The notes beneath the pieces are model-generated. The model worked only from the letters and a program-made list of their open reading frames with translations, ran no database searches and had not been told where the DNA came from. Below are positions 1,810 to 13,908 of a stretch of DNA of 24,000 nt, in pieces. Origin of the DNA: an uncultured Planctomycetia bacterium (GTDB lineage: Bacteria; Omnitrophota; Gorgyraeia; Duberdicusellales; 4484-171); assembly GCA_964536865.1 (NCBI GenBank), contig CAZHYN010000013.1, positions 19,100-43,099 of the forward strand, read 5' to 3'. The translations under genes and the position numbers were made by a program. The number at the start of each line of letters is the position of its first letter. The first letter of the stretch is position 1.

Positions 1810-2374
1810 ACATACTATTCTCGTTGTAGATGATGAGCCTAATATAGTTTCTTCCCTAAAGAGGGTTCTTGCCTCCGAGGATAGAGAGATTTTATCTGCC
1901 TATAGTGCTGAAGAGGCTTGGAGGCTTCTTCAAGAGAAGGGAGAAGTAGAGGTAATTATTTGTGATAATAAATTACCGGGAGCCTCTGGCGTAGAATTCC
2001 TTTCCAAAGTAAAAACTGCTCATCCCCACACAGTAAGAATTCTTATTACTGGTTATCCTGATTTGACCAGTGTTGCAGAGGCAATAGATAAGGCAGGCAT
2101 CTGGCGGTACCTCTTAAAGCCTGTAGAGATAGAGGAGTTAAAAACTTTAGTAAACCAGGCTTTTGGTTACTATAGGATTTTAAAAGAAAATCAAATTCTT
2201 TTTGATATCGTTTGTCAACAAGCGGAGTGGCTTAAGGTATTAAGAGAAAAGTATCCTGAGATTGTGTCCCGGGAAGTAGAAGAAGGGAAGATAATTGATA
2301 TAGAATGGAGAGAAGCTTCTGACACAGTTAGAAAATTCATAGAAAAGTACTACCTTCACAAAAAAGGAGAATGA
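1802..2374 (+). CDS. Response regulator: CheY-like receiver domain plus ~70-aa uncharacterised C-terminal domain (no DNA-binding or GGDEF/EAL motif seen)
   Basis: VVDDEPNI acidic pocket, phospho-acceptor context IICDNKLPGASG, TGY and LLKP signatures. ATG 1802 overlaps the PilZ stop (1807-1809) by 8 nt. Confidence 0.85.
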   Translation: MDKHTILVVDDEPNIVSSLKRVLASEDREILSAYSAEEAWRLLQEKGEVEVIICDNKLPGASGVEFLSKVKTAHPHTVRILITGYPDLTSVAEAIDKAGIWRYLLKPVEIEELKTLVNQAFGYYRILKENQILFDIVCQQAEWLKVLREKYPEIVSREVEEGKIIDIEWREASDTVRKFIEKYYLHKKGE

Positions 2375-3183
2375 AAGAGTTAGAAAAAAGATTGGTAAAA
2401 GAAGGATGGGTTACCTCTGCTCAACTTATAAAAGCTAAGGAAGAGCAGAAGAAAAAAAAGAAGAAATCCTTATTCTCTGTTTTAGTAACTTTGGGATATC
2501 TAAGTGAAGAGGATATTTACCTATTCTTTGCTCAGAGTGCTCAGATACCTTTTGTAAGGCCAGGCGATTATCTTTCAGATGAAGAACTTTTTAATCTTTT
2601 TTCCGAAGACTTCTATCGGGAGCATCTTTTTGTTCCTCTCTTTAGAATAGGAAATACTCTTTACATTGGGACTGCTAATCCCCTGGATACAGAGTTTATG
2701 GATACCTTAAGGAAGCATACTAATTTAGATATCTTTCCTCTATTTGCCTCTCCTTCTTCTATCTTAGAGGCAATAAATCGTGTATTTGGGCCAGAGAAAG
2801 TATACTTACAGTTAGAGGAGTTAGTTAGTTTCTCTCCTTCATTAAGTATACTACCCTTAGGAAGAGAATCTGAAAGGATAGTGATAAATACACCTGTAGA
2901 GTTTAAAGTTATTGACAAGAGGATAACTTTAGCATCTTCTCAATATCTAAAGGGAACTGCTTTGAATATTTCTCAAAGTGGTAAGGGGGTAGGGATAAGG
3001 ACTTTTCTTTTTCTTCCTTCTGGAGCAAAGATTCTTCTAAAGTTTCCTTCATTCGATCCTAATTGTGAATTAGAAGCAGAGATAACCCACTGCAGAATGG
3101 AACAAGGTTATTATTTCTTAGGAGTGAAATTTCTCCAAACAAGAAAAGATTTATTAAGATATTTATTGGAAGAAAAAAAATAA
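2371..3183 (+). CDS. Fusion protein: N-terminal T2SSE_N/MshEN-like domain + C-terminal PilZ domain
   Basis: The N-terminus resembles the GspE/PilB N-terminal domain (LVKEGWVTSAQLIKAKEEQ..., VLVTLGYLSEEDIYLFFAQSAQIPFV). The C-terminus has RxxxR (RESER) and NxSxxG (NISQSG). ATGA start/stop overlap with the response regulator; RBS AAAGGAGA at 2363-2370. Confidence 0.65.
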   Translation: MKELEKRLVKEGWVTSAQLIKAKEEQKKKKKKSLFSVLVTLGYLSEEDIYLFFAQSAQIPFVRPGDYLSDEELFNLFSEDFYREHLFVPLFRIGNTLYIGTANPLDTEFMDTLRKHTNLDIFPLFASPSSILEAINRVFGPEKVYLQLEELVSFSPSLSILPLGRESERIVINTPVEFKVIDKRITLASSQYLKGTALNISQSGKGVGIRTFLFLPSGAKILLKFPSFDPNCELEAEITHCRMEQGYYFLGVKFLQTRKDLLRYLLEEKK

Positions 3184-3225: not shown

Positions 3226-3255
3226 TTGACAGAGCAGAATTTTATATGTTATACT
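3226..3255 (+). promoter_or_regulatory. Putative sigma70-type promoter driving the riboswitch leader
   Basis: TTGACA 3226-3231, 18-nt spacer, TATACT 3250-3255. The predicted start lies about 35-40 nt upstream of the aptamer closing helix. Confidence 0.4.
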
Positions 3256-3296: not shown

Positions 3297-3480
3297 TACT
3301 ACTCGACAAAGGCAAACTCGTGGTAACACGAGGGCGCAAAGCCGTGCGTCCCGCTCTTTCTAAGACCCAGATTAACAGGGGTTTGAAGTTAAAGTGCATA
3401 AGGGATGCAGAGGCAGGTAAACTGCAGGATTTAACTAGAAATATGAAAAGGGCGGGATAGGCAGGTTGCCGAAAGTAGTA
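3297..3480 (+). promoter_or_regulatory. c-di-GMP-I (GEMM-I) riboswitch aptamer with an enlarged P2 arm
   Basis: 3308-3343 AAAGGCAAAC-TCGTG-GTAA-CACGA-GGGCGCAAAGCC matches the GEMM-I 5' core (GGCAAAC, GNRA-capped hairpin, GCGCAAAGCC). 3451-3471 GGCGGGATAGGCAGGTTGCCG matches the 3' core (..GGUAGGUAGC..GGUUACCG). Closing helix is TACTACT 3297-3303 / AGTAGTA 3474-3480. The P2 base TCCCGC(3349-3354)/GCGGGA(3452-3457) encloses about 95 nt. Confidence 0.75.
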
Positions 3481-3494
3481 TTTATTTTTTATTT

Positions 3495-3540
3495 AAGCCG
3501 AACTACTTTAGCCTTTAGGAGAGTAGTTCGGCTTTTTTGT
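3495..3540 (+). terminator. Rho-independent terminator (riboswitch expression platform)
   Basis: Perfect 13-bp stem AAGCCGAACTACT (3495-3507) / AGTAGTTCGGCTT (3522-3534) whose 3' end runs into a T6 tract (3533-3538). Confidence 0.8.
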
Positions 3541-3559
3541 TCTCCGAGAGATAAAAAAC

Positions 3560-3612: not shown

Positions 3613-3972
3613 ATGCGCAGAGGTTTTACTCTTATTGAATTAATTATGATTATCGTTATCATTGGTATTTTAGCAGCTATTGCTATCCCTAAATTTATTG
3701 ACTTAAGAACTGATGCCCAAAAGGCTTCTTGTTTTGGTAGTGCTGCAGCAATTCAAACTGCTCTTTCTAACTATTATGCCCGCCAGGCTATAAAAGGAAG
3801 CCCTGGTTTTCCTAGCACCTTACATGATACATCCTTTACTAGTGAGTATTTCACTGAAGCTACTCTTCCTGATCATCCCAAAGGATGGGATTGGGATACC
3901 TATTATAGCAGTAATACCGGGGCTCTTCATACTGGTAAAGGGGCAGATAGCGGAGCCTGTACAAACTTTTAA
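3613..3972 (+). CDS. pilA: Type IV pilin (prepilin-type N-terminal cleavage/methylation domain)
   Basis: MRRG|FTLIELIMIIVIIGILAAIAIPKF is the class III signal peptide with G-1, F+1 and E+5. RBS AAAGGAGG ends at 3604, 8 nt before ATG 3613; the ORF-track GTG 3604 sits inside the RBS. 119 aa, with two Cys residues. Confidence 0.85.
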   Translation: MRRGFTLIELIMIIVIIGILAAIAIPKFIDLRTDAQKASCFGSAAAIQTALSNYYARQAIKGSPGFPSTLHDTSFTSEYFTEATLPDHPKGWDWDTYYSSNTGALHTGKGADSGACTNF

Positions 3973-3995
3973 TAGCTGAGTTCCTAAGACTACAT

Positions 3996-4023
3996 AAACC
4001 CCGCTTTTTTAAAAGCGGGGTTT
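3996..4023. terminator. Bidirectional intrinsic terminator between convergent pilin and GT-C/TPR genes
   Basis: AAACCCCGCTTTT / AAAAGCGGGGTTT palindrome followed by TTTATTATTTTT on the + strand. It overlaps the last codons (KPRF*) of the minus-strand gene. Confidence 0.6.
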
Positions 4024-5901
4024 ATTATTTTTATCTCTAAGAATAAGCTTACTTAAGGAGAGGGCAGGCCTAAATTGAGGGTTAAGACTAATTGTTTTTT
4101 CTAGCTCCTTTAAAAAGAGTGGATTCTTCAATTTCATATAAACCAATGCCAGAGCATAATGAGAATAATACCAGTCAGGTTTAATTTCTATAGATTTCTG
4201 GTAAAGCTGTTGGGCTTTGTGTAAATCTCCCTTTTTCTCATAAATTTTTCCCCATAGAAAGTAAGAGTAGAATTCAAAAGGGTTTATTTCTATAGCTTTT
4301 TTTATATATCTTTCTGCCATAGTTAGCTTATTTTCCTCTATATAGATTCGTGCTAACGCTTGGTAAGCTCGTTCACTGTAAGGATTTAATTTTAGAGCTT
4401 TGTTTAAATAATAAAGAGCCTTCTCTTTATCGTTCTTTTTTTCGTAAAGAGTGGCTAAGTTAGTATAGATCTGATATACTCTTGCTTGGTTAGGTTCTAG
4501 TTTTAAAGCTTCACTTAAATATTTTATTGCCTCATCATATTTTCCTTCCATGAAGTAAGTACCTGCTAAATTAACATATATTCCCGCCTTCCAATCTATA
4601 TCTTTGGTAGAGATAGTCAGAGCCTTAAAAAATATTTTCCTTGCCTTTTTTAAATACCCCTTCTCTTTATAACTTACCCCTAAATTTAGCCAGTTTCCTA
4701 TATGTTGGGGCTCTTTTTCTGTGCCTTTTCTCCACACTAAGGTAGGATAGTTAAGTTGACAATTTCTTTCCACAGTGAATATAGATAGAATGAAGATTAC
4801 TCCTAATGCAGGATACAAAAAGTATCTTTTGTTTTTTATATAAAAATTTTTAAAAACCTCCATCAGAATTATGTATATACCTATACTGGGAAGATAAAAG
4901 TGGTGTTCCATAGCAGGTACTTTTAAGGTCGCATAAAACTTCGGAAGAAGCATTAAGAGATACCAAAAAACCCCTAAACTTAAAAGATATATTCTTTTTC
5001 TTAAGAGTAGAAGAGTAAATACAAGAATAATTATTCCCATCAAAGGAAAAAAACCTTGAGGTTGAAGAATAGAATTTAGCTGAGGGTAATAATGCAGGAA
5101 ATTAAGATTATCGGGAAATAAAAATAATCTCAGATAGAAAAAGCTTACCCAACTTTGAATAAGAATATTAGAAAGCGGACTCCTTAATCCTCCAGGAGTA
5201 ATTCCCTTAAAGAAGGCTTTTTTGTAAAGAAAATAGAGGAGAGAAATAGTGATGAGAGAAAATAAAAGAAAAATATTCTTCTTCTCTTTAAAAGTGAATT
5301 TAAGACTCCTATATTGATAAAGAAGGTAGTGGCCTCCTATCAAAAGCGGAAAACATAGCCCTGTTTCCTTAGTTAGCAGAGAAAATACATACAGTAAACA
5401 ACTTAAAGCATATCTTTTCTTTAAATAAAGTAAGAATCCCCCCAAAATAAAAAAAGTTACCATCAAATCCGACCTACTAGATATGTAACTGACCGCTTCG
5501 GTATTTATAGGGTGAACTAAAAACAAAAGGATTATAAGAAAGGCTAAGGTTTTGGGGGTATCTTTTTTTAGAGAAGTTAATAAAAAGTAGAGAAGAGTAG
5601 CATTTAAGAAGTGAAGAAGAACATTTATGATGCGGTACCCCACAGGGTTAAGACCTCCACCCCAATAATTAAAAGCAAAACTAAGCATAAGAAGAGGTCT
5701 ACACATTCCTTTGGGGATGGGGTAGCTGGTAACATATCCTTTAAAAAACAGAGGGAAGTATTTTGGATTTTTTATGAAAGTATTTTCTTCTATCATATAG
5801 TAGTCATCGAAGATAAAGGGAGCATTAAGAGCACTGCTATAGGTAAGAAGAGAGATAACTACTAAAGAAAGTATTACAAGATAATCAATTTTACTTTTCA
5901 C
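4009..5901 (-). CDS. TMTC/PMT-like GT-C fold glycosyltransferase (polytopic N-terminal domain) fused to C-terminal TPR repeats, paralog 2
   Basis: About 390 aa of hydrophobic helices with the first-loop acidic motif FIFDDYYMIEEN (GT-C DD/DE loop, as in TMTC and PMT/ArnT families). These are followed by about 6-7 TPR units (e.g. AIKYLSEALKLEPNQARVY, ALYYLNKALKLNPYSERAY). GTG start 5899-5901 overlaps the upstream paralog's stop by 11 nt. Confidence 0.7.
   Translation of the reverse strand: MKSKIDYLVILSLVVISLLTYSSALNAPFIFDDYYMIEENTFIKNPKYFPLFFKGYVTSYPIPKGMCRPLLMLSFAFNYWGGGLNPVGYRIINVLLHFLNATLLYFLLTSLKKDTPKTLAFLIILLFLVHPINTEAVSYISSRSDLMVTFFILGGFLLYLKKRYALSCLLYVFSLLTKETGLCFPLLIGGHYLLYQYRSLKFTFKEKKNIFLLFSLITISLLYFLYKKAFFKGITPGGLRSPLSNILIQSWVSFFYLRLFLFPDNLNFLHYYPQLNSILQPQGFFPLMGIIILVFTLLLLRKRIYLLSLGVFWYLLMLLPKFYATLKVPAMEHHFYLPSIGIYIILMEVFKNFYIKNKRYFLYPALGVIFILSIFTVERNCQLNYPTLVWRKGTEKEPQHIGNWLNLGVSYKEKGYLKKARKIFFKALTISTKDIDWKAGIYVNLAGTYFMEGKYDEAIKYLSEALKLEPNQARVYQIYTNLATLYEKKNDKEKALYYLNKALKLNPYSERAYQALARIYIEENKLTMAERYIKKAIEINPFEFYSYFLWGKIYEKKGDLHKAQQLYQKSIEIKPDWYYSHYALALVYMKLKNPLFLKELEKTISLNPQFRPALSLSKLILRDKNNKPRF
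5338..5778. repeat. 441-bp block, copy A, identical to 7313-7753 (direct repeat, offset 1975 bp)
   Basis: Base-by-base comparison of the two stretches found no mismatch. Identity breaks sharply at both ends (5337 c vs 7312 a; 5779 a vs 7754 g). Confidence 0.95.
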
Positions 5902-7870
5902 TTTTTCTGAGGTTATCCTCTATTATCTTCAGAAATTCGTTATCTACTCTAAACCCTAAAGATTTAGCAATCAAAGCATACTTTCTTGCCAAATCCCATC
6001 GGGGAGGAATTAAAGAAGCATAAACTACAGCTAAGTCATTATAAGCAGGGGCAAAACTAGGGTCAATGCTAATTACTTTTTTAAATTCGGAGAGTGCTCT
6101 GCCATCTCCTATTCTTGCATAAAGAGTACCTAAATAGTAATGAGAATTCCGATGCTTGGGATTAAAGTATATTGATTTTTTGTACATCTCTATTGCTTTT
6201 TTATAGTTGTTTTTCTCTTGAAAGATTTGTGCTAAACCATAATAGCCTCCATAGTAAGTAGGATTTATCTGAATTGCTTTTTTAAACATTTCTTTTGCTT
6301 TAAAAAGATTTCCTTCCTTAAGGTAAAAGAAGGCTAAGTTACATCCAGCTTCCACAGAGGCAGGGTAGAGCTGTAGTTCTCTAAGCCAGGCTTCCTCAGC
6401 CTTCTTTTTCTTACCCATTTTTGAATAAATGATCCCTAATAAATTATAACTACCCATAGGCGGAATTTTCACTGATTTGGTAGCATCGTTTATTAACTTT
6501 AACGCTTTTTCGTATTTTCTCTGTTTTATGTAGATGTGCGCTAAATTGCCTCTAGCATTAACTATACTCTCTATCCTATCTGCAGTATTTATTGCTTTTA
6601 TAAATTCTTTTTCTGCTTGGAATGTGGCTCCCATCTTTAGATACACCAGTCCTAACTGATTAAGAATGGTTGCTGATTTAGGGTTTCTCTGTGCAGAGAT
6701 TTTCCAGAAAACTAAGGGATTTCTGTATTCATAGCTTCTAATTAGAGTAAAAGATGCCAAGATAGAGATAATTCCTATAACGAAATAGGTAAAGTACTTG
6801 GTATACTTTAGATAGATTCTTCTTAAGATACTTATCAAAACTATATAGATGCCTATACTAGAAAGATAAAAATGGTGCTCCATAGCAGGGAAGCTAAGCC
6901 GGGCATAAAATTTGGGAAGCAAACCTATAAGCAGCCAGCTTAATCCGATACTTATTAAGAAGTTCTTCTTAATAAAGAGGAGAGCTAAGATAATTAAACC
7001 TACTATTCCTAAGGTTGAGAATAATACAGGGAAATGAAAAAGAGAACCAAACTCCGGAAGATAGTGAATGATATTTAAGGAATGAGGGAGAACGAGTAAT
7101 TTAAAGTAAAGAAGAGTTACTACCGACTGAAGAAGAATGTTTTGGTAGTAAGAACGAGGTATCCTTGCAGGAGTGGAGGAAAAGACCTTCGATTTATAGA
7201 TGAGATACAGTAAAGTAATTAAAACTATTCCTATGTAGACAAACTTTCTTTTCCCTATATCTTTTTTAGAAAGAGGATAGTCTTTTATAAAGTAGATAAA
7301 CTCATAGCTTAATATCAAAAGCGGAAAACATAGCCCTGTTTCCTTAGTTAGCAGAGAAAATACATACAGTAAACAACTTAAAGCATATCTTTTCTTTAAA
7401 TAAAGTAAGAATCCCCCCAAAATAAAAAAAGTTACCATCAAATCCGACCTACTAGATATGTAACTGACCGCTTCGGTATTTATAGGGTGAACTAAAAACA
7501 AAAGGATTATAAGAAAGGCTAAGGTTTTGGGGGTATCTTTTTTTAGAGAAGTTAATAAAAAGTAGAGAAGAGTAGCATTTAAGAAGTGAAGAAGAACATT
7601 TATGATGCGGTACCCCACAGGGTTAAGACCTCCACCCCAATAATTAAAAGCAAAACTAAGCATAAGAAGAGGTCTACACATTCCTTTGGGGATGGGGTAG
7701 CTGGTAACATATCCTTTAAAAAACAGAGGGAAGTATTTTGGATTTTTTATGAAGGTGTTATTTACAATCATATGGTTGTCATCAAATAGGAAAGATCCAT
7801 TTAAGGAAGGTAGGTATATAAGAAAAGATAGACTTGCAAAAATAATTATAAAGATTTTCTCTATTTTCAT
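5891..7870 (-). CDS. TMTC/PMT-like GT-C fold glycosyltransferase fused to C-terminal TPR repeats, paralog 1
   Basis: Same architecture as the neighbour (FLFDDNHMIVNN loop, multi-TM core, TPR tail such as AIEMYKKSIYFNPKHRNSHY). 147 aa are identical to the neighbour and the rest is roughly 35-40% identical by eye. Confidence 0.7.
   Translation of the reverse strand: MKIEKIFIIIFASLSFLIYLPSLNGSFLFDDNHMIVNNTFIKNPKYFPLFFKGYVTSYPIPKGMCRPLLMLSFAFNYWGGGLNPVGYRIINVLLHFLNATLLYFLLTSLKKDTPKTLAFLIILLFLVHPINTEAVSYISSRSDLMVTFFILGGFLLYLKKRYALSCLLYVFSLLTKETGLCFPLLILSYEFIYFIKDYPLSKKDIGKRKFVYIGIVLITLLYLIYKSKVFSSTPARIPRSYYQNILLQSVVTLLYFKLLVLPHSLNIIHYLPEFGSLFHFPVLFSTLGIVGLIILALLFIKKNFLISIGLSWLLIGLLPKFYARLSFPAMEHHFYLSSIGIYIVLISILRRIYLKYTKYFTYFVIGIISILASFTLIRSYEYRNPLVFWKISAQRNPKSATILNQLGLVYLKMGATFQAEKEFIKAINTADRIESIVNARGNLAHIYIKQRKYEKALKLINDATKSVKIPPMGSYNLLGIIYSKMGKKKKAEEAWLRELQLYPASVEAGCNLAFFYLKEGNLFKAKEMFKKAIQINPTYYGGYYGLAQIFQEKNNYKKAIEMYKKSIYFNPKHRNSHYYLGTLYARIGDGRALSEFKKVISIDPSFAPAYNDLAVVYASLIPPRWDLARKYALIAKSLGFRVDNEFLKIIEDNLRKSEK
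7313..7753. repeat. 441-bp block, copy B, identical to 5338-5778
   Basis: See copy A. It encodes residues FIKNPKYFPLFFKGY...TKETGLCFPLLI in both paralogs. Confidence 0.95.
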
Positions 7871-7958
7871 AAACTTACTTTAAAATTATATCATATACTT
7901 TCTGTAATTTATAATAAAATCAGAGAAAGAAGATACCGAATAGAGAAGAATAAAATAC

Positions 7959-7987
7959 TTGTCAAAATTTAAAAAGATTTTATTATA
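7959..7987 (+). promoter_or_regulatory. Possible promoter for the GT2 gene, positioned for a leaderless or near-leaderless mRNA
   Basis: TTGTCA 7959-7964, 17-nt spacer, ATTATA 7982-7987, then 6 nt to ATG 7994. No Shine-Dalgarno sequence is visible. Confidence 0.3.
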
Positions 7988-7993
7988 AAATTG

Positions 7994-8854
7994 ATGGGAG
8001 TAACAGTCATTTTGCCTGCTTATAACGAAGCTAAGAATCTGGAAGAGCTCTTACCGAAAGTTTTTCAAGTCTTAAGTGGGAATAATGTAGAGATTATTGT
8101 TGTAGATGATGCTTCCCAAGATAATACTTCCGAAGTAGCTGAAAAATACGGAGCCAAAGTAATAAGAAATCCTTATAATATGGGAAACGGAGCAAGTATA
8201 AAAAGAGGAATAAGAGAGGCAAAAAATGAGATATTAGTTTTAATGGATGCCGATGGTCAGCATCCTCCAGAGGAGATCCCTAAACTACTTAAAGATTTGA
8301 ATAGTTTTGATATGGTGATAGGGGCACGTTTAAATACTCCTCAAGTGTGGTGGCGCTATTTTGCTAATAAAATGTATAACTTTTTAGCTTCCTATGTGAG
8401 TGGGATAAGAATAAAGGATTTAACTTCGGGATTTAGGGGAGTTAAGAAGAGCAGAGTAGTTAAATTTTTATACCTTTTACCAAATACCTTTTCTTATCCT
8501 TCTACTTTAACTTTATCTTTTATAAAAGCTGCCTATCCGATAAAATTTGTCCCTATTAGAGTTTTGCCAAGAAGAGAAGGGAGAAGCAAAATCAATCTCT
8601 TAAGTGATGGATTAAGGTTTTTTATTATTATTGTACGTATTGCTGTCTTTTTTTCTCCCTTAAAAGTATTTTTACCAATAGCTTTGTTTTTCTTTCTCTG
8701 TGGGTTTTTCTATTACCTCTACACGTTTTTGAGTTTCCACCGTTTTACAAACATGAGTGCGGTGCTTCTTACAACCTCGGTGATAATTTTTATGTTAGGC
8801 TTAGTATCAGAACAGATAGCGAATTTGAGGATGGAAAAAATAGATGATAGATAA
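7994..8854 (+). CDS. GT2-family polyprenyl-phosphate glycosyltransferase (Dpm1/GtrB/ArnC-like) with C-terminal TM helices
   Basis: VTVILPAYNEAKNLEELLP, VVDDASQDNT and the DXD motif LMDADGQH, plus two C-terminal hydrophobic helices (FFIIIVRIAVFF..., AVLLTTSVIIFMLGLVSEQI). ATG 7994 is preferred over the TTG 7991 of the ORF track. Confidence 0.85.
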   Translation: MGVTVILPAYNEAKNLEELLPKVFQVLSGNNVEIIVVDDASQDNTSEVAEKYGAKVIRNPYNMGNGASIKRGIREAKNEILVLMDADGQHPPEEIPKLLKDLNSFDMVIGARLNTPQVWWRYFANKMYNFLASYVSGIRIKDLTSGFRGVKKSRVVKFLYLLPNTFSYPSTLTLSFIKAAYPIKFVPIRVLPRREGRSKINLLSDGLRFFIIIVRIAVFFSPLKVFLPIALFFFLCGFFYYLYTFLSFHRFTNMSAVLLTTSVIIFMLGLVSEQIANLRMEKIDDR

Positions 8855-8911
8855 GAACCCTCTCTATTCTTTTCTTATGTTTCTACAGAAGGATATCTTC
8901 TCTCAATCCTT

Positions 8912-9985
8912 ATGAGTAAGAAAAGGATGTTAATAATTTCTCTCTCCGGAATAGGAAATACTCTGTTAGCTTTACCATTTTTAACCTCATTAAAAGATAA
9001 CTTCTCCTCTGCTCAAATAGATTTGGTGTGTTTAACCCAAGGCATAGTCGAGTTATTAAGCCCCAGGGGCCTTATAGATAACTTTTATGTATTTTCTAGA
9101 AACATAGTCAAAGTTTTATTTATGATTCTTAGATTAAGAAGAAATAAATATCTTTATTCATTTACTATATTTCCTTCCAACAAGTGGCAATTTGATTTAG
9201 TGGCATTTATGATAGGAGCAAGGTATAGGGTCACTCATTGTTATAAGTATAGGAGCAAGATAAACTTAAGTTTTCTTCAAAACATAAGAATTAAGGCAGA
9301 GGAAACTCTTCATGATGTCGAGCAAAATCTAAATTTTTTGAAGATTTTCAATATCAATTCTAGCCAAAGGGAGGTAGAACTATTTTTAGATGATAGAGAG
9401 TTAGCTTTTGCTGAAGATTTTCTTAAAAATAAAGGGTTACAGGAAGCATTCTTAGTTGGTATTCACCCGGGAGGAGGGGGGCGATTAAGTAAAAAATGGC
9501 AGGGAAGGTTTAAAAGGTGGCCAGTGAGCTATTTCTCTAAACTCTGTGATAGGCTAATAGAGCAAAAGGGAACTAAGATCTTAATATTTGGGGGAAGAGA
9601 GGAGAGTGAAATCAAGAAGGAGGTGAAAAGAATAGCTAGTCACAAAGAGAGCCTTTTTATCATTGAGGAACTATCTTTAAGGAGAGTTTCTGCACTCATT
9701 AAAAAATGTAAATTATTTATTTCTAATGATACTGCTTTAATGCATATCAGTGCTGCCTTAGGTGTTTCTACACTAGGTATTTTTGGTCCTACTAACTGGC
9801 GAAGAACCGCTCCTTATTCTAATTCCGGTTATTATATTTCTTCAGATATTCCTTGTTCTCCCTGTTTAAAATATCCCTTTTTTTCTAGTAGCAGTAAGAT
9901 CAAATGTAATAAAGGAGTAAAATGTTTGAAGGAAATTACTGTAGAAAAAGTTATGGATAAATTAAAAGAGTTGAATTTGATATGA
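8912..9985 (+). CDS. GT9-family glycosyltransferase (ADP-heptose:LPS heptosyltransferase-like)
   Basis: N-terminal LIISLSGIGNTLLALPFLTSLK, then GIHPGGGG...KRWP and the C-terminal ISNDTALMHISAALGVSTLGIFGPT signature typical of RfaF/RfaC-type enzymes. Confidence 0.8.
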   Translation: MSKKRMLIISLSGIGNTLLALPFLTSLKDNFSSAQIDLVCLTQGIVELLSPRGLIDNFYVFSRNIVKVLFMILRLRRNKYLYSFTIFPSNKWQFDLVAFMIGARYRVTHCYKYRSKINLSFLQNIRIKAEETLHDVEQNLNFLKIFNINSSQREVELFLDDRELAFAEDFLKNKGLQEAFLVGIHPGGGGRLSKKWQGRFKRWPVSYFSKLCDRLIEQKGTKILIFGGREESEIKKEVKRIASHKESLFIIEELSLRRVSALIKKCKLFISNDTALMHISAALGVSTLGIFGPTNWRRTAPYSNSGYYISSDIPCSPCLKYPFFSSSSKIKCNKGVKCLKEITVEKVMDKLKELNLI

Positions 9986-10072
9986 GATTTTTCCTTACGA
10001 AAATATTTTTAAAAGTATAGTAAACAGAAACACTCTTTTTATTTGGAGGAGGAGATAATAGAATAAATACCA

Positions 10073-11170
10073 ATGATAAAAGTCTTAGGGATATCTAGAG
10101 AGTTTCCTCCTTATGATAAAGGAGGAGAGGGGAGAGTATTAGAATATCTGGCTAAGTATTCAAAAAAGTTTGAGGTAGATTTAACAGTAGTTACTGGTTA
10201 TCCTTTCCTAAAAAGCTATAAAGAAAGTTATAATGGTATCCAAGTCTACCGTGTTCCTATGATAGGTGATAATTTCTTGACCAAAATTCCGACATTCGCT
10301 TATTTTCTCTGGCAAATTTTAAAAAATATTCAAGATAAATTCGATCTTATCTATAGTATTTCTGTACCAATATTTGGAAAATTAAAAAAACCACTGATAG
10401 CTCATTTCCAAAATACTAGATACGGAGAGTATATAGCCTGCAGGATGATAAAGAAGAAGATTTATGCCTTTTTAAATAAGATATACATTCCTTTTAATAA
10501 GATTCTTCTAAAGAAAGCTGATGGAGTATTTGTTCTTTCCAGAAATATGATTGAAGAAATTAAAGCCATGAAAGATTGTGAAGGAAAAGAAGTTGTTGTA
10601 ATTCCCAATGGAGTTGATACGGAGCTCTTTAAGCCATCTGGGGAGAGAAGATTTACCTCTCAAGAAAAGAAAGTTCTCTACGTAGGTAGGTTAGACGTGA
10701 GAAAAGGTATAAGTACTCTTTTTTATGCTCTTAAGGAGGTAACAAAGAGAGTAAAAGTAAAGTTGTTAATTGCAGGAGAGGGTAGGGAGAAAATTAGGTT
10801 AACCGCTTTAGCTAAAGCTTTATCCCTGCCAGTTGAATTTTTAGGGAAGATAACTTATCATGATTTGCCTCAAATTTATGAGAGGGCAGATTTATTTGTT
10901 TTACCATCCTTATATGAGCCCTTTGGTATGGTGGCTTTAGAGGCAATGGCGTGTGGGACACCTACCGTTGTCTCCACGGCTTGTCCTATTGAGAGGGTAC
11001 CTAAATTTAAAAAAGGAAGTGCGAAGGATCTTGCCGACTTACTTTTAAGTATACTTTCTTCAGAGGAAAAGTTAGTTGAGATTTCTCACCAATGTAGGGA
11101 AATAGCAAAAAGATACGATTGGGAAAACATTATTTCTAAAATTGTCACTTTCTTTAGGAAATTTGTTTAG
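10073..11170 (+). CDS. GT4-family (GT-B, group 1) glycosyltransferase
   Basis: C-terminal EX7E-type region LPSLYEPFGMVALEAMACGTPTVVS and LLIAGEG. The frame is closed upstream by TAA 10064-10066. Confidence 0.85.
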   Translation: MIKVLGISREFPPYDKGGEGRVLEYLAKYSKKFEVDLTVVTGYPFLKSYKESYNGIQVYRVPMIGDNFLTKIPTFAYFLWQILKNIQDKFDLIYSISVPIFGKLKKPLIAHFQNTRYGEYIACRMIKKKIYAFLNKIYIPFNKILLKKADGVFVLSRNMIEEIKAMKDCEGKEVVVIPNGVDTELFKPSGERRFTSQEKKVLYVGRLDVRKGISTLFYALKEVTKRVKVKLLIAGEGREKIRLTALAKALSLPVEFLGKITYHDLPQIYERADLFVLPSLYEPFGMVALEAMACGTPTVVSTACPIERVPKFKKGSAKDLADLLLSILSSEEKLVEISHQCREIAKRYDWENIISKIVTFFRKFV

Positions 11171-11178
11171 AGATAAAG

Positions 11179-11829
11179 ATGAATTATAGACAAGCCTTAG
11201 AGGATTCAGCAAAAATAGAGAGGAACATTCTCAGCCAGTATGAGGAGTTTAAAAAAATAATCTTAGAGAATGTAAGAGGTAAGTGTTTAGAAATTGGTTG
11301 TGGTGATGGTTTAACAACCGAGTTTTTAAAGAGATATACCTCTAGCCTAATTTCTCTTGATCTCTCATATAGAAGAATCAAGATAGCAAAAAAAGTAAAT
11401 CCAGAGATACCGTTTACCCTTTCTGACGCTAGAAACCTCCCCTTTAAAGATGAATTCTTTGATAGTGTATGTGCATTTGAAGTAATAGAGCATCTACCTT
11501 CTTACTTCGATCATCATAAATTTTTAAAAGAAGTGAGGAGAGTTTTAAAGAAGGGGGGAGTATTTATTGTATCCACACCTAACAGACTTGTATTTAGAAT
11601 TTATTGTAGATTACTAGGAGAGAAACATACTACCCATTTTTCTGAGCTTACCTACTTCCAGTTTCGAAAGATACTTAGAGAGTACTTTACCCCAGTTAAG
11701 CTCTATGGCCAGTTTGGCTGGCTATCTCTTTTTTATAAGTTGCCCCCTGTGAAGCTGATTCATTTTCTCTTGAGTAAGCTAACTTTTCTCTGTAAAGGAT
11801 TATTAGGGGTGTGTGTAAAACTAACCTAG
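11179..11829 (+). CDS. Class I SAM-dependent methyltransferase (Methyltransf_11-like)
   Basis: Motif I CLEIGCGDG, post-I LDLS, then FDSVCAFEVIEHL and LKKGGVFIVSTPN. Confidence 0.85.
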   Translation: MNYRQALEDSAKIERNILSQYEEFKKIILENVRGKCLEIGCGDGLTTEFLKRYTSSLISLDLSYRRIKIAKKVNPEIPFTLSDARNLPFKDEFFDSVCAFEVIEHLPSYFDHHKFLKEVRRVLKKGGVFIVSTPNRLVFRIYCRLLGEKHTTHFSELTYFQFRKILREYFTPVKLYGQFGWLSLFYKLPPVKLIHFLLSKLTFLCKGLLGVCVKLT

Positions 11830-11830
11830 A

Positions 11831-12622
11831 ATGGAAATAATTTTTATACCCATAATCCTTCTCTTGATGTCCTCTTTGGGAGCAGTAAATTTTTATCTCT
11901 TCGTAGGGAGGCAGGTGAGCATAAAAGAATCATTTAAACTAGTGACTTCAGCATTAGCGCTTAATAAGCTTCTTTTTACTGGTTCAGGATATCTAGTTTC
12001 AAGTTTCTTCTCTCGAAGTAAAAATTTACCTTTTTATAAGACCCTGACCGTTTTTGCATTTCTAGAATTTATGGGCAATTCTTTGTGGTTAATTTTAGGT
12101 ATTTATTTTGGCGCCAAGTTAGCTATAAGGGTGCCCTTAGCTCTTATAATAATATTGATTATCTTTGGTATCACCTTTCTATTTAAAAGACATAAATTTA
12201 TTCTATTCTTTAAAAATATTTTGCAATACTTTAAGGAAGTGGGTGCTAGGATTTTTCTTATCCTCCCCTTTACGATTACCAATGTATTTTTAGTAGTTCT
12301 TTATTATTTTTTTCTTTTTCGTTTCTTTTCTTTCCATACGGGAATTCCCTCTATTTTAAAAATTGTTTCTGTTTCTTTTACTATAGGGTACCTATCTCCT
12401 GCTCCTTCAGGTATTGGCTTCAAAGATACGGGATTGGTATTACTTCTGGTAAGAGAAGGGATCGATCTTCCTGGAGCTTTATCTATTGCTATATGGGATA
12501 GATTGATTACCACTTTTTTCTGGATATCATTAGGAGGAGTGGTGGGTTTTAATTTGATTAAAGAAGTGATGAAGGAGAAATTTAAGATAAAACTAAAGAG
12601 TAAAGAAAGTAAGAATTTATAA
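11831..12622 (+). CDS. Polytopic membrane protein, flippase-like / UPF0104 (LPG-synthase TM-region-like) family
   Basis: About 8 hydrophobic segments. The GYLSPAPSGIGFKDTG loop resembles the conserved P-x-P-G-G-x-G-x-x-E loop of UPF0104 proteins. ATG lies 1 nt after the methyltransferase stop. Confidence 0.5.
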   Translation: MEIIFIPIILLLMSSLGAVNFYLFVGRQVSIKESFKLVTSALALNKLLFTGSGYLVSSFFSRSKNLPFYKTLTVFAFLEFMGNSLWLILGIYFGAKLAIRVPLALIIILIIFGITFLFKRHKFILFFKNILQYFKEVGARIFLILPFTITNVFLVVLYYFFLFRFFSFHTGIPSILKIVSVSFTIGYLSPAPSGIGFKDTGLVLLLVREGIDLPGALSIAIWDRLITTFFWISLGGVVGFNLIKEVMKEKFKIKLKSKESKNL

Positions 12623-13299: not shown

Positions 13300-13304
13300 T
13301 TTTT

Positions 13305-13381
13305 CGGGGCGTAGCTCAGGTGGTTTTAAGAGCACTTGGTTCGGGACCAAGAGGTCAGCAGTTCAAATCTGCTCGCCCCGA
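13305..13381 (+). tRNA. tRNA-Pro (anticodon CGG)
   Basis: Cloverleaf read by hand: acceptor CGGGGCG/CGCCCCG, D-stem GCTC/GAGC with a 12-nt loop, anticodon stem CTTGG/CCAAG with loop TTCGGGA (CGG, G37), T-arm AGCAG-TTCAAAT-CTGCT, discriminator A. CCA is not encoded. Confidence 0.9.
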
Positions 13382-13498
13382 TCTTAATTTAATGAGAGAG
13401 TAGATATAAAAATCAAGAGTTCTCCAAACTCAGCTTTTTGTCTTAAAGAAAACTTGAGTTGACATTTGAGATATGAAAGTGAAATAGATTAACTCTTA

Positions 13499-13546: not shown

Positions 13547-13908
13547 GGGGGTGAAAGGGCCTCGACTCAATAAGCAGGGAAGGAGTTGCATGCCAGCGGG
13601 TAGACCAGCTGTTTAAGAGGTCTACACCAAATAAAGGCAACAAGCTATGCCTCTACTCCTGCTTACGCAGTTTGTTAAGCAGGGCTCTTAATCCTGTTTG
13701 TCTCTGACGGGATTAAGGGTTCGGTAAGAGAGACTAGAGGTAGATTCTTAACCTTGGGGATTTACCTCGAAAAATCAACAAGGTTGCTTTCTAACAGATC
13801 CTGTCTCTCGGAGCTGTTAGAGAAAAGATCAAAAGAGAGACTAAGCATGTAGTAGGCTCCTCTTTTAGCTTATTGAGGACGCGGGTTCGATTCCCGCCAC
13901 CTCCACCA
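13547..13908 (+). ncRNA. ssrA: tmRNA (SsrA), one-piece, CCA encoded
   Basis: 5' GGGGGTG pairs with 3' CACCTCC, including the G3:U wobble. T-arm GGACGCGGGTTCGATTCCCGCC, then ACCA. PK1-like GTAGACC/GGTCTAC lies before the tag frame GCA..TAA (13637-13678). Helix-5-like CCTGCTTA/TAAGCAGG carries the stop codon. Confidence 0.92.

Follow-up and report, generated by a model that had tools for sequence, protein, structure and literature searches.

Four neighbouring genes at positions 3613-8854 of a 24,000-nucleotide (nt) stretch of DNA from an uncultured Omnitrophota bacterium (the window, by which we mean the whole stretch) encode a prepilin, two paralogous proteins (A and B) in which a GT-C glycosyltransferase membrane domain is followed by tetratricopeptide repeats (TPR), and a GT2 glycosyltransferase. 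We think it fairly probable that this module carries out pilin-directed periplasmic O-glycosylation of the three-component type, in which the donor is a lipid-linked monosaccharide, within an MSH-type pilus locus that is controlled by cyclic di-GMP (c-di-GMP). The case is made by the conserved linkage of the genes, by homology, by predicted structures and by the precedents of TfpW and TMTC. Open reading frame (ORF) listing and domain scans (Pfam, NCBIfam) found all of the genes that a first-pass annotation of the same DNA had proposed: the prepilin of 119 amino acids (aa) at 3613-3972 on the plus strand, with an ATG start and AGGAGG upstream; A (630 aa, 4009-5901, minus strand, GTG start), with its membrane domain at about residues 1-392 and the TPR domain C-terminal to it; B (659 aa, 5891-7870, minus strand), with the same architecture; and the GT2 (286 aa, 7994-8854, plus strand), which starts at ATG 7994 or, alternatively, at a TTG at 7991. 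The layout described there also held: the stop of B and the start of A share 11 nt, an overlap called identically in the relative L001, B and the GT2 gene diverge with 123 nt between 7870 and 7994, and the pilin gene and A converge tail to tail, 36 nt apart. The G+C content of the window is 31-41%, and the close homologues of its proteins are all proteins from Omnitrophota metagenome-assembled genomes (MAGs).

The membrane domains of A and B are of the GT-C type and are related to the eukaryotic TMTC enzymes. Pfam recognises only the TPR part of either protein (TPR_1/2/8/12/17, residues 400-620), the first 392-398 residues match no Pfam family even at E<=10, and comparison of the membrane domains with the sequences in the PDB, by single sequence or by profile hidden Markov model, gave nothing relevant. 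Neither A nor B on its own matches PF13231 (PMT_2) or DUF1736, the two membrane-domain families that the first-pass annotation had proposed to check. Some 300 relatives came out of a homology search, and nearly all of them belong to Omnitrophota; among the more distant ones a few do carry PF13231, and JGI has annotated one as 'protein O-mannosyl-transferase'. It took profile-profile comparison to show the relationship to TMTC. An alignment of 21 N-terminal membrane domains of the family (A2), compared by hhalign with the membrane domains of human TMTC1-4 (Additional file 1 of PMC7801869), gave a probability of 100% (E 1.6e-39, 368 columns, 14-384 aligned to 7-432), whereas the same profile against ArnT (5EZM) gave 0.3%. 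By sequence, the family is specifically TMTC-like over the whole domain, as had been guessed, and classification as ArnT-like was rejected on the latter value.

Structure prediction leads to the same fold. AlphaFold2 (AF2) modelled full-length A with a pLDDT of 93.7 and a pTM of 0.91, with about 16 paired helices after residue 385, and the N-terminal domain alone with a pLDDT of 89.7 and a pTM of 0.91. Because the searches with full-length queries (the profile against the PDB and the AF2 model in Foldseek) were swamped by TPR proteins, they were repeated with the N-terminal domain, and Foldseek then returned GT-C enzymes only from the PDB, namely STT3, PIG-M, Pmt4, AglB, Pmt1/2, ALG12, ArnT, PglB, AftD, EmbA/B and DPY19 (probability 1.0, E 7.5e-4 to 0.1, TMq 0.43-0.58; STT3 at 7.5e-4 and TMq 0.57). 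Together with the DD motif in the first loop, this bears out the earlier GT-C assignment. In a library of 1.84 billion proteins, 122,814 clusters (50% identity) match the profile at E<=1e-3 and 49,067 still do so at E<=1e-30, so the TMTC-like GT-C/TPR proteins are a very large and mostly unannotated bacterial family.

Residues that are invariant or nearly so in A2 are D32, D33, N40, R68, P69, H97, H130, P131, E135, Y139, R143, D145, K178, E179, Y256, P263, E332, H333, Y336 and R379, and the stretch F-x-F-D32-D33, right after transmembrane helix 1 (TM1), is invariant or at least 90% conserved among 21-40 homologues. The TMTC motifs have been defined to include M2 (SHKSYRP, with H-K-S-Y modelled as mannose contacts), M7 (ERxxY) and a metal-binding 'DW' in the EL4 loop (PMC7801869). 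The family keeps M1 (DD), M3 (HP.xTEAV..R.D/E) and M4 (KET). The residues that each of the two families holds invariant fall at matching places, namely DD, RP, H, HP.xTEAV, R.(D/E), KE and E...Y. Only the RP of M2 is retained (consensus GMxRP, H-K-S-Y being absent), and M7 reads E332-H333-H-x-Y336, with His in place of the phosphate-binding Arg of ERxxY. The EL4/DUF1736 loop between TM7 and TM8 is shorter and has PxxLxxxHxxP where TMTCs have ...CDW..., and DUF1736 (PF08409) has no match in A or B at E<=10 and a match in 1 of the 21 family members, at E 0.086. The family thus departs from TMTCs in three motif tests and is not a typical TMTC. Because the mannose-contacting H-K-S-Y of M2 is not conserved, mannose should not be assumed as the sugar that is transferred.

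The first-pass annotation had asked whether GT-C/TPR genes keep company with pilin and GT2 genes in other genomes, and this linkage turned out to be conserved across many of them; as with the other computational checks that it had suggested, the outcome was favourable. Two related loci were obtained by exact protein look-up, one from JGI that is about 90% identical to the window at the nt level (L001) and one from GCA_964635565.1 (L002), and a scan in which each GTDB species was represented by one genome gave 79 distinct loci, which were annotated by tblastn and a prepilin-motif search. Both L001 and L002 hold the tandem GT-C/TPR pair tail to tail with an orthologous pilin gene. Among about 22 Omnitrophota loci with relatives of at least about 38% identity, the window included, a pilin lies no more than 320 nt from a GT-C/TPR gene in 16 (the window, L001, L002, L004, L006, L009-L014, L017, L019 and L021-L023). 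Lineages with a single copy have the pilin followed by the GT-C/TPR gene on the same strand, with gaps of 60-230 nt. Pilin-like ORFs numbered 21 within 1 kb of GT-C/TPR genes versus 12 in the 603 kb that lie farther out. In a neighbour-joining (NJ) tree from which the tract shared by A and B that is described below was left out, all pilin-linked genes fall into one clade, so the linkage to pilins is ancestral there; within the tree, an 'A' clade holds A of the window, L001 and L002 with L003_2 and L004, and a 'B' clade holds the three B genes with L006, L007_1 and L008. More distant relatives, with about 30-36% identity, also pair a pilin with a GT-C/TPR gene: they come from two 'Clostridia' MAGs (L028, L065), a Verrucomicrobiota MAG (L062), L034 and L078, and the gene order in the 'Clostridia' MAGs is T2SSE-T2SSE-T2SSF-pilin-GT-C/TPR.

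The GT2 gene is the third member that is widely, though not universally, conserved. Counting identities of 53-71%, it lies within 1.3 kb of the pilin-linked GT-C/TPR gene in 13 loci besides the window, or 14 with it; several contigs are too short to be informative here. Enzymes with 53-57% identity to that of the window (71% in L006) are encoded within 1.3 kb in L006, L010-L014, L017 and L019-L021, a GT2 gene is also present in L001 and L082, and L022 has one as well, though partial and with 30% identity. What follows the GT2 gene varies. Homology between the window and L001 ends at 8844, at the end of the GT2 gene, beyond which (window 8845-12622) L001 (1-3660) and L082 (1-5010) have a short GT2, a 493-aa PMT_2-type GT-C and a GT4, with a methyltransferase and a flippase-like gene in addition in L082. 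Across the loci, the downstream content includes PMT_2-type GT-Cs, UDP-GlcNAc 2-epimerase, methyltransferases, GT4 enzymes and the flippase-like protein. The conserved core is pilin, GT-C/TPR and GT2, and the block downstream looks like a replaceable surface-glycan cassette. In single-copy lineages the GT-C/TPR and GT2 genes are often separated by a conserved gene on the opposite strand, which encodes a response-regulator-GGDEF protein (a diguanylate cyclase of about 318 aa) and lies on the minus strand of the locus in each of the listed cases (L010 8003-8959, L011 10088-11053, L012 10036-10992, L013 9979-10938, L017 10111-11067 and L021 10022-10981); the window has no such gene at this place.

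The pilin itself is well defined. Its N-terminus, MRRG|FTLIELIMIIVIIGILAAIAIP, combines a class III signal peptide with a hydrophobic helix behind it, and the protein matches Pfam N_methyl (E 3.4e-7) and TIGR02532, both above their cut-offs, as well as the NCBIfam model IV_pilin_GFxxxE. The peptides FPSTLHDTSFTSEYFTEATLPDHPK and GWDWDTYYSSNTGALHTGK, on which the first-pass annotation had based its description of a Ser/Thr-rich C-terminal half, are indeed present, but with 26% Ser+Thr in the last 61 residues the region is just modestly rich in these residues. The C-terminal regions of orthologous pilins have 19-32% Ser+Thr, and 13 of the 16 pilins from loci with an adjoining GT-C/TPR gene retain the Thr of a Y-x-x-x-T-G-x-L motif. 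Upstream of the pilin in the window lie genes of a pilus assembly context, all on the plus strand: a partial T2SSF/PilC-like gene (4-624), a histidine kinase (625-1434), a PilZ protein (1456-1809), a response regulator (1802-2374) and an MshEN+PilZ protein (2371-3183). An MSH-type pilus set follows behind the orthologous pilin gene in both L001 and L002, comprising a secretin, a TPR protein, T2SSE with MshEN, T2SSF and MshEN(-PilZ), with AAA_22 in addition in L002.

In its 5' leader region, the pilin gene carries a c-di-GMP-I riboswitch aptamer at 3301-3379 on the plus strand (Rfam RF01051, E 4.6e-4, with 37.1 bits where the gathering score is 35). A promoter-like TTGACA-17-TATACT, identified by eye, precedes it at about 3227-3255, and a hairpin with a T run follows at about 3497-3541. 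The orthologous site in L001 (9068-9150, minus strand) scores 68 bits with RF03167 (c-di-GMP-I-GGC), and no c-di-GMP-I aptamer reached the gathering threshold in L002, L004, L006 or L009-L014. The riboswitch probably regulates the pilin gene, and together with the PilZ, MshEN and response-regulator-GGDEF genes nearby it suggests that the pilus is under c-di-GMP control.

The GT2 enzyme matches Glycos_transf_2 (PF00535, E 1.7e-33), has its DAD motif within LMDADGQHPPE and has two hydrophobic C-terminal helices, with hydropathy peaks at about residues 203-228 and 255-273. Its best matches in the PDB are the dolichol-phosphate mannose synthase (DPMS, the enzyme that makes Dol-P-Man) of P. furiosus (5.3e-27), ArnC (1.8e-18) and Synechocystis GtrB (1.7e-16), and the alignment with GtrB reaches residue 275 and thus takes in the TM helices. 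All of these top relatives are polyprenyl-phosphate sugar synthases, in agreement with the Dpm1/GtrB-type role claimed for the protein, and we propose that it is the putative maker of a lipid-linked monosaccharide donor. The top NCBIfam models are AglJ, Dol-P-hexose transferase, PpgS, PgfS and ArnC, with AglJ the best at 121.7 bits against a cut-off of 325; since the enzyme stays below every equivalog cut-off, its sugar specificity is not assignable. A gene for an LPG_synthase_TM or 'flippase-like' protein recurs near the GT2 or GT-C/TPR genes in L010, L014, L018 and L082, and gene neighbourhood makes this protein a tentative candidate for the flippase of the lipid-linked sugar.

A and B share a tract of 441 nt that is exactly identical, at 5338-5778 in A (codons 42-188) and 7313-7753 in B (codons 40-186), both on the minus strand, while the flanks are about 55% identical. 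At the protein level, identity between A and B is 41% over residues 1-41, 100% over 42-188, 38% over 189-392 and 31% in the TPR domain. The tract holds the donor- and metal-binding part, with motifs M2 (RP), M3 (HPINTEAV..SRSD) and M4 (KET), and leaves out the DD loop, the EL4 and EL5 loops and the TPR domain. The converted catalytic core of the first-pass annotation is therefore sharper than it had been drawn, being an exact tract, but the DD motif lies 9 codons upstream, outside it. Judged by the 31-41% identity outside the tract, A and B are old paralogues. L001 (JGI) and L082 (ENA), which are independent assemblies of one sister lineage with about 90% nt identity to the window, have the same 441-nt identity between A and B with the same boundaries, and the tract of the sister lineage differs from that of the window at 28 nt (7 aa), both copies being changed alike. 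The A/B pair of L002 has no identical tract. The same boundaries in three assemblies and the 28 shared changes point to gene conversion and concerted evolution.

It is very unlikely, in our judgement, that the identity is an assembly artefact, that is, a near-repeat collapsed in the de Bruijn graph. All of the sources are short-read metagenome assemblies, and many database copies of A and B (P0247-P0254) are partial proteins of 280-515 aa that end near the 441-nt repeat, a place where assemblers struggle. Such ends are explained by short-read contigs that break at a true repeat, and they call for caution when A/B genes are counted in MAGs. An artefact would have had to arise with identical boundaries in three independent assemblies (the NCBI contig of the window, L001 from JGI and L082 from ENA) and to leave 28 sites that differ between two lineages and are alike in both copies of each. 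With flanks that are about 55% identical, even a collapsed bubble still implies copies that were far more alike than their flanks, and the L002 pair was assembled without any such tract.

In the mechanism that we propose, the GT2 would load polyprenyl phosphate with a sugar taken from a nucleotide sugar at the cytoplasmic face of the membrane, by analogy with its homologues DPMS, GtrB and ArnC. The lipid-linked sugar would then be flipped outward, possibly by the LPG_synthase_TM/flippase-like protein, to which only gene neighbourhood points. The GT-C domains of A and B would use this donor on the periplasmic face, with an active site made up of the first-loop DD, the KE(T) and the E-H-H-x-Y loop, and their C-terminal TPR domains would bind the acceptor. 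Linkage and the TfpW and TMTC precedents make the adjacent pilin the most likely acceptor, presumably at Ser/Thr residues of its C-terminal globular half, before or during assembly. Gene conversion would keep the donor-binding core (TM2-TM6) identical in the two enzymes while the first 41 residues, the remaining membrane domain and the TPR domain diverge. A converted core with a diverged remainder fits the use of one shared donor at different acceptor sites or in successive steps; that A and B recognise different acceptors is speculation.

Several observations weigh against pilin glycosylation by this module. The pilin is only moderately rich in Ser and Thr, as described above, and the 'DW' and the Arg of 'ERxxY' of the TMTCs are not conserved in the family. 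That the TPR domain lies in the periplasm is assumed by analogy with the orientation of TMTC (PMC7801869) and with TfpW reporter fusions, and a simple positive-inside count on the AF2 helices is ambiguous. In relatives, the GT2 gene also adjoins a TPR-less PMT_2-type GT-C of about 500 aa, so the GT2 may serve more than one transferase, or chiefly that enzyme, and L002 keeps the pilin, A and B with no GT2 gene adjacent. Paralogues with 42-56% identity have no neighbouring pilin in L003, L007, L008, L016 and L018, and distant members (26-33% identity) form head-to-tail arrays of 5-8 copies with neither a pilin nor a GT2 neighbour in Latescibacterota (L038, L051, L069, L070) and Gemmatimonadota (L047, L064). 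From these pilin-free arrays it follows that the family as a whole is not pilin-specific. A further contig with about 92% nt identity (L083, JGI 3300017593 Ga0187538_161954) matches window 8140-5843 with its positions 1-2298, covering the start of the GT2 gene and B, and departs from the window 58 nt into gene A, to go on with an M24 peptidase and other genes that are unrelated; either the contig is chimeric or a real rearrangement has removed A and the pilin.

These points feed different explanations of the locus. A and B might be periplasmic protein O-glycosyltransferases with broad or different targets, such as envelope or surface proteins or the secretin and pilus machinery, the pilin being at most one among many and its adjacency a matter of co-regulation. 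The family is enormous, Omnitrophota genomes hold several paralogues, some with no pilin neighbour, TPRs are a generic protein-binding module, and eukaryotic TMTCs, according to two reports (PMC7801869, PMC11292533), act on a fold class (cadherin EC domains) and not on one protein. The pilin-adjacent members, however, form one coherent clade with an ancestral, operon-like linkage at gaps of 60-230 nt, and the look-alike TfpW is pilin-specific, so that we regard broad targets as unlikely. Quite unlikely, too, is a non-protein acceptor (lipopolysaccharide (LPS) core, lipid A, a surface glycopolymer or peptidoglycan), decorated in the manner of ArnT or GtrC by a glycan island that merely abuts the pilus genes. 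This would sit well with the GT9, GT4, methyltransferase and flippase-like genes that follow the GT2 gene in the window, in a block that is swapped between close relatives, and with a weak match of residues 83-197 to the NCBIfam AZOBR_p60025 family cell surface glycopolymer formation protein (E 9e-9, below cut-off), and Foldseek does not tell GT-Cs that act on proteins from those that act on lipids or glycans. It sits badly with the lack of profile similarity to ArnT beside full-length similarity to TMTC1-4, with a conserved unit made of pilin, GT-C/TPR and GT2 and not of the GT9/GT4 block, and with L002, which has the pilin and the pair with no glycan genes nearby.

It would be most surprising if A and B were inactive TPR scaffolds (PilF/PilW/MshN-like) on a degenerate GT-C anchor, aiding pilus or secretin assembly. 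The TPR regions do score against the type_IV_pilW, Tgl and GltE models, though far below the cut-offs, and the missing 'DW' and ERxxY Arg could be read as decay. Yet DD, RP, HP.NTEAV, R/D, KE and E..Y are invariant or nearly so in 21-40 members, which is unexpected if the domain is degenerate, the segment preserved by gene conversion is exactly the one that bears the motifs, a dedicated donor synthase is conserved along with the pair, and the loci already hold a separate MshN-like TPR gene. Glycosylation of the pilin remains the reading that we prefer.

The linkage to a pilin and to a donor synthase gives a testable acceptor and donor hypothesis for a huge family in which almost no member has an assigned function, and sequence homology connects the TMTC machinery for O-mannosylation in eukaryotes with a system of bacteria. 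Pilin glycosylation of the TfpW style, so far described in a few Proteobacteria, would extend to Omnitrophota and further uncultured phyla. Sugars on pilins commonly protect the pili against phages and change adhesion, and Omnitrophota are thought to live attached to, or to prey on, other cells, which makes such effects relevant to an attached or predatory way of life. The domain-limited conversion shows cleanly, in a natural case, how two enzymes can keep a common catalytic core identical while their specificity domains diverge. Going further, we offer a tentative and rather unlikely proposal: bacterial TMTC-like GT-C/TPR proteins may ancestrally have been glycosyltransferases of pilins (adhesive filaments) and the prokaryotic roots of the TMTC cadherin enzymes, and the tandem pair may be modular, with recurrent conversion locking the donor core, with TPR and outer segments free for different sites or successive sugars, and with a non-mannose donor from the GT2. 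If this were true, a family of more than 100,000 uncharacterised protein clusters in bacteria would gain its first functional handle.

The remaining features of the window concern expression and neighbouring genes. Between the pilin gene and A lies a palindromic G+C-rich hairpin (3994-4025), with a 14-pair stem followed by a T run, that overlaps the stop codon of A and looks like a bidirectional terminator by its sequence. The divergent intergenic region between B and the GT2 gene (7871-7993) is A+T-rich and has promoter-like hexamers on both strands, TTGTCA-16-TATTAT at 7959-7986 (plus) and ATGACT-17-TATAAT at 8010-7982 (minus), which are consensus matches only; promoter and terminator scans of the window gave counts not above those of shuffled sequence. 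Downstream of the GT2 gene, on the plus strand, follow a GT9 heptosyltransferase-like gene (8912-9985), a GT4 (10073-11170), a methyltransferase (11179-11829) and the LPG_synthase_TM/'flippase-like' membrane protein (11831-12622; PF03706 E 2.1e-9, TIGR00374 E 1.9e-9). Farther along the same strand are two ordinary housekeeping RNAs, a tRNA-Pro (CGG) at 13304-13383 and a transfer-messenger RNA (tmRNA) at 13547-13908, the latter scoring 167.8 bits and encoding the tag peptide ATSYASTPAYAVC.

Among known systems, the closest likeness by published features is to PilA-TfpW of the group IV pilins of Pseudomonas aeruginosa/paraeruginosa. TfpW of P. aeruginosa has 646 aa, 11 TM helices, a DDX motif in periplasmic loop 1, a loop 4 motif Y-x6-P-F-x7-P and a C-terminal periplasmic TPR domain; tfpW adjoins pilA, as do its homologues in several Proteobacteria, and TfpW is needed for the arabinosylation of pilin Ser/Thr from polyprenyl-phosphate-arabinofuranose (polyprenyl-P-Araf), for which DDX is required (bioRxiv 10.1101/2020.04.19.049825). 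The statement of the first-pass annotation that bacterial enzymes of the GT-C+TPR kind are uncharacterised overlooks this protein. The shared features are a length of about 650 aa, about 11 TM helices, the first-loop DD and, presumably, an N-terminus in the cytoplasm and TPRs in the periplasm, with a polyprenyl-phosphate monosaccharide as the proposed donor and pilin Ser/Thr as the proposed acceptors, to which can be added Y256-x6-P263, invariant or nearly so in the family and followed by P273, and a gene that adjoins that of the pilin, in the same order in single-copy Omnitrophota relatives. The differences are that TfpW draws on an arabinose pathway of DPPR synthase, DprE1 and DprE2, genes for which were not found in the window or in related loci, whereas a Dpm1/GtrB-type GT2 is present here, that there is no tfpX, that two paralogues are homogenised by gene conversion, and that the host is an Omnitrophota bacterium with an MSH-type locus.

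Eukaryotic TMTC1-4 (CAZy GT105) resemble A and B in the full length of the membrane domain, in M1, M3, M4 and parts of M2 (RP) and M7 (E...Y), in a C-terminal TPR domain that is presumably non-cytoplasmic and in a Dpm1-type lipid-sugar synthase (for TMTCs, of Dol-P-sugar) as the probable partner. Unlike them, A and B lack DUF1736, have a shorter EL4 and have replaced H-K-S-Y of M2, 'DW' and the Arg of ERxxY, and the acceptor is probably a pilin instead of cadherin domains. GtrA/GtrB/GtrC, ArnC/ArnEF/ArnT and actinobacterial Ppm1 with Pmt share the general scheme in which a GT2 makes a polyprenyl-phosphate sugar, a flippase moves it and a GT-C transfers a single sugar outside the cytoplasm. However, the GT-Cs of the GtrC, ArnT and Pmt types act on O-antigen, lipid A and Sec-exported proteins, respectively (Pmt being a GT39 enzyme with a MIR-less loop), all of them have no TPR, and the flippase candidate here is of the LPG_synthase_TM type and not GtrA or ArnE/F. 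PilO/TfpO, PglL, TfpM and PglS also glycosylate pilin Ser/Thr in the periplasm and are often encoded beside the pilin, but they have the Wzy_C/O-antigen-ligase fold, transfer an undecaprenyl-pyrophosphate (Und-PP)-linked oligosaccharide en bloc and have no GT-C domain, DD motif or TPR; an oligosaccharyltransferase of the Wzy_C/PglL type was rejected here, as Pfam found no Wzy_C domain. In the literature we found no report of TMTC-like genes linked to pilins in Omnitrophota. The concept thus has a precedent in pilin glycosylation of the TfpW style, and what is new here is the pair of TMTC-homologous enzymes, the Dpm1-type synthase that accompanies them and the domain-limited gene conversion.

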